64,000 nucleotides of DNA from assembly GCF_963921235.1 (NCBI RefSeq), contig NC_086107.1:100132001-100196000 (forward strand), written 5' to 3'. Below the pieces are notes generated by a model. That model had not been told where the DNA came from. It made no database searches and worked only from the letters and a program-made list of their open reading frames with translations. Source of the stretch: Mobula hypostoma. Taxonomy: Eukaryota. Shown here piece by piece: positions 15,601 through 18,600 of this stretch; position 1 is the stretch's first letter, and every line of letters starts with the position of its first letter. The position numbers and the translations under genes are program-made.

Positions 15601-18600
15601 TTATGAGACTTTGTGTCCAACTTCAGGACCAATAGTCAAAATGATGACTGTCAATAGCAAAAAAATATTCAATCAGGTAGCAGGCAATTTGTTGGGTCTC
15701 CTGAGACTGCAGCTGCTGTGCCCGTCAGTACTAATCTCACGCATATCCCCCTCTGTCCCTCTCATCTAAGTCTCTGTCAAGATGTCTCTTGATTGTTATA
15801 ACTTTCATTGTCTGCATCATCTGCTCTGGCAGCTCATTCCAGATACAAACTACTATGTGGAAAAATTTTCTCCTCTGATATCTCAAATCTCTCACCCGTG
15901 CTCCTTAAACTTAAGTCCTCCTAATTTTAAACAATGATCATGCTACCATTAATCATCTGTCAGTCTCAGATTAAGTTTTAATTAACCTTGTGTTACTTGC
16001 CCCTTATGTAGTTCTTCCATCTTTTGGAAGTAGAATGTTTTGGCAGTTGTACAAGGCCTTGGTGAGACCACACCTGGAGTATTGTGTGCAGTTTTGGTCC
16101 CCTAATCTGAGGAAAGACATCCTTGCCATAGAGGGAGTACAAAGAAGGTTCACCAGATTGATTCCTGGGATGACAGGACTTTCATATGAAGAAAGACTGG
16201 ATGAACTGGGCTTGTACTCGTTGGAATTTAGAAGATTGAGAGGGGATCTGATTGAAACGTATAAAATCCTAAAGGGATTGGACAGGCTAGATGCAGGAAG
16301 ATTGTTCCCGATGTTGGGGAAGTCCAGGACAAGGGGTCACAGTTTGAGGATAAAGGGGAAGCCTTTTAGGACTGAGATTAGGAAAAACTTCTTCACACAG
16401 AGAGTGGTGAATCTGTGGAATTCTCTGCCACAGGAAACAGTTGAGGCCAGTTCATTGGCTATATTTAAGAGGGAGTTAGATACGGCCCTTGTGGCTACGG
16501 GGATCAGGGGGTATGGAGGGAAGGCTGGGGCGGGGTTCTGAGTTGGATGATCAGCCATGATCATAATAAATGGCGGTGCAGGCTCGAAGGGCCGAATGGC
16601 CTACTCCTGCACCTATTTTCTATGTTTCTAATGCTATGTGACTGAGTGTAGGAGTGGCCAAAATGGCTCGCTTTGACCATCAAACATGGAGGCGCTTTCA
16701 CAAAACTCCCACAGTCCCTGATGAACCTGTGATTTTAGTCTCTGAGGCCAACTTGAGAGCATCTTTCAGGAGGATGAACCCACAGAAAGCATCTGACCCA
16801 GATGGGGTACCTGGCAGAGCACTGAAGATATGTGCTAATCAACTGGCTGGACTGTTCCCTGATATCTTTAACCTCTCAATCTGAGGTACCCATCTGCTTC
16901 AAGCAGGCTTCAATTATACTGGTGCTCGAGAAGAAGTCATAACCTGCCTCACTGGCTATCGTTCAGTAGCAGTTAAGTCCACTGTGACAAACCACTTTGA
17001 GAGGTTGGTGATGAAACACATTAACTCCTGCCTGTAAACTGACTTGGATCTCACTCTAATTTTCCTGCCATTACAACAGATCAACAGCAGATGCTGCTTC
17101 ATTGGCTCTTAACTCAATCAGGCCCTCAGCCTCAATACCTCCTTATGCAACTGGATTCTCGATTTCCTCGCTTGTAGACCCCAGTCAATTCAGATTGGCA
17201 ACATCTCCTCCACAATCACAGGTGCACCAGAATGCTGTGTGCTTAGCCCCCTGCTCTACTTTCTTTATGCTTATGACCGTGAAGCTAAGAATAACTTCAA
17301 TGCCATATTTATATTTGCTGACAATATCACTGTCATTGGCTGAATCAAAGGTGATGACAAATCGGCACATAAGAGGGAGCTTGAAAATCTAGCTGAGTAG
17401 TGCCACAATAATCTCTTACTCAATGTCAGCAAACCAAAGGGCTGATTATTGACTTCAGGAGGAGGAAACCTGAAGTCCATGAGCCAGTCCTCATCAGGGG
17501 ATTAGTGGTAGAGAGGGTCAGCAGCTTTAAATTCCTTGGCGTTATCATTTTAGAGGATTTGTCCTGGGTTCACCACGTAAGTGCCATTACAAAGAAAGCA
17601 CAGTTACACCTCCACTTAGGAGTATGCACAGATTCAGCATGTCATCTAAAACTTTGACAAAATTCTATAGATGTGTGGTGTAGAGTATATTGTATATTGA
17701 CTGATTGCATTGCAGCCTGGTATGGAAACGCCAAAGCCCTTGTAGGGAAAAGCCTACAAAAAGTAGTGGATATAATCCATTCTATCATGGGTAAAGGCCT
17801 CCCCACCATTGAGCACATCCACACACAGCGTTGTTGCAGGAAAGCAGCATCCATCCCCAGGGCCCACACCACCAGGTTCAGAAACAGTTACTACCCCTTA
17901 ACAATCAAGCTCCTCAACCAGAGTGGGTAACTTCACTTGCCTAACTGAACTGTTCCCTCTGGACTGGACTCACTTTCAAGGGCTTCCATATTATTCTCGT
18001 TACTCACTCACTGCTATTATTTTTTCCTTTTGTATTTCTTTATTTTTAATTGTTGTCCACCCTGTTGGATATGGTAAACAACAGGAATTCTGCAGATGCT
18101 GGAAATTCAAGCAACACACATCAAAGTTGCTGGTGAACGCAGCAGGCCAGGCAGCATCTGTAGGAAGAGGTGCAGTCGACGTTTCAGGCCGAGACCCTTC
18201 GTCAGGACTAACTGATGAAGCTTCCTTCAGTTAGTCCTGACGAAGGGTCTCGGCCTGAAACGTCGACTGCACCTCTTCCTACAGATGCTGCCTGGCCTGC
18301 TGCGTTCACCAGCAACTTTGATGTGTGTTGTCTGTTGGATATGGTCTTTCATTGATTCTATTATTTCTTGTTTTTACAAGAATCTCAGGGTTGTTTATGG
18401 TGACATATATGCTTTGTCAGGTATGGCAATTTACTTTGAAGTTTGGTACATTTAATGCATGTCCACAGTCTGTTGGAGTTTATTTAATTTGCTAAATTTT
18501 GAATATCATAATTCAAAATAAGTATAATTTCTAATAATTTACCATTTAATTATTTTATATTGGATTTTGTGTGTAATTTCTGGTTTCTGGTCAGTATTTT

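Follow-up and report, generated by a model that had tools for sequence, protein, structure and literature searches.

The window (the whole stretch of 64,000 nucleotides analysed here, from contig NC_086107.1 of Mobula hypostoma) was read on its forward strand, and all positions are counted from its first letter. Myosin-9 was the best match among solved structures and its gene lies on the + strand, in agreement with the MYH9 host named in an earlier sequence-only reading. For a transposon protein in the window the best named homologue is from a stingray, which makes a cartilaginous-fish host probable. Copy A, a 256-bp palindromic insertion (18076..18331), lies inside an 18-kb intron of this gene (exons at about 3500–3655 and 21839). 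Its arms (18112–18215 and 18227–18330) are exact reverse complements over 104 nt. The parts of copy A, in which PLE stands for Penelope-like element, are:

18062..18075, + strand: left TSD, 14 nt, an exact repeat of 18332–18345.
18076..18111, − strand: 36-bp PLE tail; its outer end would be the distal reverse-transcription start.
18112..18215, − strand: tail-bearing arm, a 5′-truncated pLTR copy with PLE sense on the − strand and a hammerhead core at 18205–18179.
18216..18226, no strand: junction of the arms, an 11-nt centre with a 4-nt self-complementary word at the axis.
18227..18330, + strand: tail-less arm, a 5′-truncated pLTR copy with PLE sense on the + strand, ending at what would be the proximal reverse-transcription start.
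18232..18269, + strand: minimal type I hammerhead of the tail-less arm, with a predicted cut after C18264.
18332..18345, + strand: right TSD, 14 nt, preceded by one extra base at 18331.

The perfect 104-bp arms, the one-sided 36-bp tail, the 14-bp TSD and a hammerhead core on each strand, all described in the sequence-only reading, were confirmed by these coordinates. The last 6 nt of the 11-nt centre (18221–18226) are arm sequence, continuing the parental sequence of the right arm as read from loose ends of public contigs (described below). When a 256-bp gap was placed at random in the window (n = 200,000), an anchored duplication of at least 9 nt was obtained in 27 placements; 26 of these 27 gave 12–14 nt and probably fell on copy A or another repeat. 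Misassembly was rejected as an explanation, since the left junction occurs in public contigs from two organisms and each of four separate palindromes has its own TSD. By contig depth profile, copy A sits at the end of another high-copy repeat, which we take to be a LINE. Two LINE-like inverted copies (16703–17248 and 19775–20428; 81–86% complementary) bracket copy A in the same intron, and this pair would be a second, longer possible dsRNA.

The hammerhead of the tail-less arm was assigned a 5-bp stem I (18232–36/18265–69), a core (18237–43), an extra A (18244), a 4-bp stem II (18245–48/18253–56), GAAA (18257–60) and a GUC triplet ending at C18264. The CUGANGA, GAAA and NUH boxes were all present with helices I and II, and the earlier description of a minimal type I motif was upheld by the core boxes, the pairing of both stems and the position of the GUC. 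The core pattern occurred 5 times in the window (0.03 expected), twice in copy A (18237–18263 on the + strand and 18205–18179 on the − strand). A G-U stands at 10.1–11.1 in copy A, not the conserved G10.1–C11.1 pair; the G-C form (18186 A>G) accounted for 18–58% of family depth across four contig runs. In the Infernal-type check that had been proposed, no Rfam hammerhead model matched copy A at E up to 10 and only generic hairpin (miRNA) matches were returned, all sub-threshold. Isolated hammerhead regions folded no better than shuffles in 5/5 cases (z between −0.9 and +1.6), as is expected since the core is minimal.

The arm was linked to a Penelope-like element by a decayed copy elsewhere in the window:

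1360..2368, + strand: decayed PLE 3′ part (the relic), by tblastn and arm similarity.

ORF remnants of the relic (1395–2001) form a broken frame with an RT-thumb region, a CX4CxxC linker and GIY-YIG, and are followed 3′ by a pyrimidine-rich region, a decayed hammerhead (about 2265–2300) and the arm. The copy A arm was aligned to relic 2252–2368 with 71% identity (E 1e-8; local score 94, where the highest of 500 shuffles scored 49), with the hammerhead at the same arm position in both. Pfam gave 0 families on the relic frames directly, and the relic was identified through its homologues. P0002 was the sole match among 102 longer candidates (E 8e-29; GIY-YIG match below the curated cut-off); by tblastn it was returned to window positions 1395–1946 at E 4e-35, and the RT+GIY-YIG protein P0011 was recovered at E 6e-19. 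A profile-free search yielded 519 relatives, and 11 of the best 150 (the two top and nine long ones) were scanned for domains: 8 held RVT_1 and GIY-YIG, 2 GIY-YIG only and 1 neither, with several matches below curated cut-offs. The three cysteines of the linker were invariant in 9/9 aligned proteins, the relic included. A CX2-5CxxC linker upstream of GIY-YIG is given as a mark of the Neptune and Nematis clades in the excerpted text of PMC8557442, and the relic is, judged by its linker, a Neptune/Nematis-type PLE.

Because ORF remnants and a homologous arm are joined in the relic, a hammerhead arm homologous to that of copy A can be placed at the 3′ end of an RT/GIY-YIG element in the same window. 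That the copy A arm is the 3′ end (pLTR) of a PLE is accordingly held to be nearly certain, and the Penelope link drawn in the earlier reading stands. Copy A itself is non-coding, and the relic is of a different and older subfamily; no member of copy A's own subfamily with an ORF was seen in the window, nor did any public contig link that subfamily to an ORF. Two further PLE remains were recorded on the − strand. One is a second decayed PLE (62848–63017 and 63505–63795), an old pLTR end with an RT remnant 500 bp upstream (tblastn E 1.5e-4, and also a profile match) and another repeat between them. The other (58262–58385; E 4e-5) is a solitary old PLE end in which the hammerhead region has decayed and around which no obvious TSD is seen.

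Related ends were collected with an arm profile built from five window stretches, which gave 11 matches at E below 1e-4 at 7 loci, the five seed loci matching by construction; one match at E 0.58 was dropped, and 5 shuffled controls gave one match (E 0.27). Palindromes were found at 4 of these 7 PLE-end loci, with TSDs of 14, 13, 10 and 14 bp. Those other than copy A are:

34299..34524, + strand: copy B, palindrome with the tail on the right, a 13-bp TSD and arm starts at 0 and −4 from the core.
30773..30944, + strand: copy C, asymmetric palindrome with a 10-bp TSD and arm starts at +11 and +38.
13192..13394, − strand: copy D, palindrome of a related subfamily with the tail on the left and a 14-bp TSD with one mismatch.

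Three related TSD-flanked copies had been noted within 22 kb, and the palindromes B, C and D with their TSDs bear this out, with two qualifications: copy C carries a complete hammerhead core on neither arm, and copy D (about 74% identical) is of another subfamily than A, B and C. The tail was present on one arm only in A, B and C and was 36–41 nt long. With positions numbered from the first C of the core, arm starts are −16/−10 in A, −4/0 in B, +38/+11 in C and about −1/+8 in D (by eye), and 7 of the 8 starts in the four palindromes lie between −16 and +11. In copy C the tail-less arm exceeds the tail-bearing arm by 27 nt at its upstream end, and in copy A by up to 6 nt; in B and D the tail-bearing arm is longer at the centre. 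Centres differed in 4 of 4 palindromes, so that the comparison of centres proposed earlier speaks, within the window, against a self-propagating family. The 4-nt self-complementary word at the axis of copy A was also present in the parental continuation in X6, and shared centres could therefore recur without self-propagation. The flank beyond the tail-less arm of copy C (30729–30773) resembles the missing tail; among 20,000 random window 45-mers 0.7% scored as high, and this was one of four flanks tested. The likeness may be fortuitous, may stem from priming guided by homology, or may mean that an older tail was the insertion site.

Arms of one copy differed from each other at 1 position in 248 nt, and arms of different copies at 2–6 positions per 55–130 nt. 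At 5 of the 6 variable sites among A, B and C, both arms of each copy agree wherever both cover the site, and the copies differ from each other. Of these symmetric variants, at least three are widespread among family members, making up 9%, 30% and 15% of the depth in X1. Symmetric differences are as fresh duplication from each source would leave them, or conversion between arms; a self-copying palindrome would pass on changes made in one arm. The sixth site (+28, a CpG) carries a variant that is shared by the tail-less arms of B and C and absent from the tail arm of B, at about 8% of family depth.

Positions 17627–18226 (left flank, tail and left arm) were compared with contigs of four public runs, among them X1, X6 and X8. 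Summed depth in X1 rose from 19 in the unique flank to about 1e7 in the arm, a figure that is not a copy number but marks the arm family of copy A as very abundant. Loose ends are given for the 24 of about 2000 rows listed. Among these, the outer end at 18076 was shared by at least 386, 327 and 60 contigs in X1, X6 and X8 with unlike flanks, and a second outer end was found at 18109 (at least 145 contigs, X6) or 18110 (at least 29, X8), again with unlike flanks. Behind 18215, at least 311, 141, 37 and 88 contigs in the four runs shared one purine-rich continuation among the rows listed, so that the arm belongs to a longer parental sequence. The listed loose ends behind 18209 and 18120 resemble relic sequence by eye. 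Joints inside the arm, at 2–10 times single-copy depth and of unstated type, numbered at least 6 among the 12 of 176 rows listed, all at different coordinates. Pattern scans of metagenome contigs and prokaryote genomes gave 0 matches.

The left junction of copy A was recovered in a public contig with 0 differences. In organism B the same flank-element junction was found, reaching 22 letters into the element with 1 difference in 225. In a contig of organism C the match stops at 18075 with 6 unmatched letters beyond, which hints at an empty site. From the junction in organism B and the possible empty site in organism C, the insertion seems to be older than the split of organisms A and B and younger than the split from organism C.

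Copy A was predicted to fold as one hairpin (about −240 to −248 kcal/mol; z −28). That the ribozyme would be masked in about 100 bp of dsRNA had been proposed, and the folding model agrees for the 104-bp hairpin: opening it to reach a hammerhead-competent fold would cost about 74 kcal/mol (73.9 in the palindrome against 5.7 in a lone arm). Co-folding of two arms gave an alternative duplex rather than an active dimer, in a folding model that cannot represent the hammerhead core. Whichever strand were transcribed, as MYH9 pre-mRNA or by read-through, the antisense arm would be made first and the ribozyme would be locked in the 104-bp hairpin; for this reason the ribozyme is most likely inert in the transcript as modelled, and the hammerheads would be passengers. 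A pile of loose ends at the cleavage position (18177/18178) was absent from the 24 of about 2000 rows listed, an absence that carries no evidential weight. The presumed-RNA run X8 had no excess of A>G/T>C places (11/8, against 15/10 and 18/13 in DNA runs), a comparison that is uninformative on editing since contigs merge many copies. Two pyrimidine-tract/CAG motifs in the right arm (18221–18230 and 18270–18284, + strand) are candidate splice acceptors in the MYH9 sense, and the predicted hairpin would mask both.

Copy A is best explained, with good probability, as an extremely 5′-truncated insertion of an endonuclease-bearing PLE of Neptune/Nematis type, consisting of two head-to-head pLTR ends. 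Outer arm ends fall at two family-wide positions about 35 nt apart, and inner ends vary from copy to copy. In the proposed scheme, the PLE protein would nick both target strands 10–14 nt apart, giving the TSD. Uncleaved RNA from one source element would serve as the template at both nicks. Synthesis at one nick would begin at the distal RT start site and yield arm plus tail; at the other it would begin at the proximal RT start site and yield the arm only. Both cDNAs would end after 55–150 nt and be united by end-joining, using 0–4 nt of microhomology or adding a few bases. In A, B and D the arms reach upstream across the predicted cut, so that their template was uncleaved. Such double priming would account for the head-to-head arrangement of the arms, the tail on one side only, the TSD, the centres that vary between copies and the longer tail-less arm of copy C.

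Single steps of this scheme are published, and the papers are cited here for the excerpts used. PLE insertions with an inverted 5′-truncated copy, a one-sided tail of 30–40 bp and a TSD of 8–10 bp are described in PMC8557442 and PMC3846280. A lizard PLE protein cut and extended both target strands in vitro, with two adjacent internal RT start sites delimiting the tail, uncleaved RNA as the template and hammerhead cleavage only in the presence of protein (PMC11167929). The double-priming step is drawn from this lizard Poseidon element in vitro, of which inverted copies are not stated to be a product in the excerpted text. The two outer ends found in public contigs, at 18076 and 18109/18110, agree with a tail bounded by two RT start sites as in the lizard element. 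The combination of published PLE steps into one double-priming scheme is our own proposal.

The palindrome was very probably rebuilt at each insertion. The published insertion signature, the differing centres and the symmetric arm variants all favour the recurring by-product of Penelope integration that the sequence-only reading had offered as one of its two explanations. Its other explanation, a retrozyme-like foldback family, is contradicted by the 4/4 different centres, the symmetric arm variants, the cores on opposite strands and the longer parental 3′ region. In its general form, a non-autonomous family of self-propagating palindromic RNA whose master is copied whole and whose centres vary by later deletion, it is very improbable. 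It draws on the dense local clustering of copies (3 close ones in 64 kb), on the abundance of the family (the arm depth of about 1e7 against 19 given above) and on two points that also stand against building at each insertion: central deletion of an A-like palindrome could have produced the centres of B and C, and the +28 variant shared by their tail-less arms is as inheritance from a palindromic master would give. A further point against building at each insertion is that only 3 whole copies of the subfamily were read (4 palindromes in all). Against the self-propagating family, the other 5 of 6 variable sites are symmetric, and the commonest continuation beyond the arm in the rows listed is the parental 3′ region rather than a fixed centre. 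Cores on opposite strands would allow no monomer to be excised, and a hairpin of about −240 kcal/mol hides the ribozyme and would need unwinding by the RT. MITEs and foldback DNA transposons have inverted repeats at both termini and a TSD of fixed length. A MITE-like foldback transposon with long terminal inverted repeats would share the overall palindromic shape, and a palindromic DNA-transposon family of similar size is known in frog (PMC5625713, as excerpted); the one-sided tail and the hammerhead core speak against it, the TSD length that varies from 10 to 14 bp and the homology to a PLE 3′ end refute it, and its probability is negligible.

Within the by-product reading, the inverted arm could also have been made by self-priming, with the template or first cDNA folding back on itself, a route put forward for rotifer PLEs. 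In the excerpts of PMC3846280, palindromes where inverted PLE copies meet are read as self-priming on an antisense template; the axis of copy A is a self-complementary 4-nt word, the arms would be identical by construction, and in B and D the tail-bearing arm extends further at the centre. Self-priming leaves two observations aside. The end of the second arm at the second RT start site is unexplained by the model itself, and the tail-less arm holds extra upstream sequence in C (27 nt) and in A (up to 6 nt), unless the tail-bearing arm was shortened by later deletion; the 27 nt of copy C are not obtainable by snap-back of a tail-bearing cDNA. Self-priming is therefore considered unlikely, and double priming is modestly favoured over it.

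More tentatively, and with less than an even chance, these stumps may record double-primed PLE integration directly in the genome, each nick having been extended from a different RT start site, and may have been copied from a short hammerhead-headed RNA. The clustering of 7 of the 8 arm starts between −16 and +11 of the core would fit such a short template. The short template may be a SINE-like PLE derivative, or a transcript starting or spliced just upstream of stem I. In D. virilis, Penelope contains an internal promoter as well as an intron in its pLTR (PMC2377424, excerpt), and the end of this intron maps to helix I (PMC4209133, excerpt). As in D. virilis, where the intron ends at the hammerhead, a pyrimidine-tract/CAG motif lies just before stem I in the right arm of copy A, and by this likeness the template may have been short or spliced. 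If the record were a direct one, the great size of the family within a single vertebrate genome would let the PLE inversion step be worked out statistically.

Copy A resembles insertions of endonuclease-bearing (EN+) PLEs with an inverted pLTR, as far as these are described in excerpts of PMC3846280 and PMC8557442, in its head-to-head truncated pLTR, one-sided tail (30–40 bp there), short TSD and pLTR hammerhead. It differs from them in that both sides are truncated to 55–150 nt, so that no ORF lies between. The TSDs of the window palindromes (10–14 bp) are longer than the 8–10 bp described for rotifer PLE insertions. The Anolis Poseidon element PAc (excerpts of PMC11167929) is like copy A in having two adjacent RT start sites that define the tail, a hammerhead about 90–130 nt upstream and an uncleaved template. 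Its ORF starts in hammerhead stem II, whereas the sense arm of copy A holds no such open frame; the relic ORF, again unlike that of PAc, ends about 260 nt upstream of the hammerhead, and the relic has the Neptune/Nematis CX2-5CxxC linker that Poseidon does not have.

Minimal hammerheads of metazoan PLEs, as excerpted from PMC4209133, share with copy A the core boxes, an extra nucleotide between 9 and 10.1, palindromic 15.2–16.2 and a helix I of 4–5 bp. Copy A differs from them in the G-U that replaces G10.1–C11.1 and in a helix II of 4–5 bp, against 7–8 bp in Schistosoma. Hammerhead pairs on opposite strands are described there at distances of 100–700 bp, whereas the cores of copy A lie only about 30 bp apart inside a perfect palindrome. 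In the same excerpts the monomer minimal hammerhead gave no cleavage and dimers little. Metazoan non-LTR retrozymes are head-to-tail repeats with canonical one-strand hammerheads that release circular monomers (PMC7229834, excerpt). Copy A is similarly short and non-coding, with a type I hammerhead and a TSD longer than 4 bp; in contrast to retrozymes, its cores are minimal, inverted (on opposite strands in A and B) and masked, and it has no canonical hammerhead with helix III.

Self-folding Harbinger palindromes in frog and Penelope in lizard are described as ADAR targets with measured editing (PMC5625713, excerpt). Copy A is like these a roughly 200-nt self-complementary intronic repeat for which a tight dsRNA is predicted, and by this analogy its hairpin is probably a substrate of ADAR; the ADAR/Dicer proposal of the sequence-only reading is plausible and has known parallels. 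At such density, perfect intronic hairpins of 100 bp may be a main source of dsRNA for editing in Mobula hypostoma, comparable to the lizard and frog families.

Copy A is most likely an ordinary transposon by-product, every structural feature of which is already published for PLEs. No paper on ORF-less PLE palindromes in cartilaginous fish was found in a search of mostly non-subscription literature, which is weak evidence of novelty. The inversion step of PLE transposition is called still undefined in the excerpted text of PMC8557442, and short, young, TSD-flanked copies with readable ends could discriminate double priming from self-priming.

Other repeats were recorded in the window. Rfam, run on the whole window, gave one match at the gathering score, an LSU rRNA fragment (33086–33164, − strand) that corresponds to the 5′ 80 nt of 28S rRNA (Rfam LSU positions 24–103; 81.9 bits). 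It lies in a MYH9 intron beside a more GC-rich stretch and is possibly an rRNA-headed SINE or a retroposed rRNA/ITS2 fragment. An 83-nt unit is tandemly duplicated in two copies at 42463–42628 (92% identical), and a short repeat occurs in two copies 15.9 kb apart (32432–32535 and 48361–48464) with blocks of 90–97% identity.
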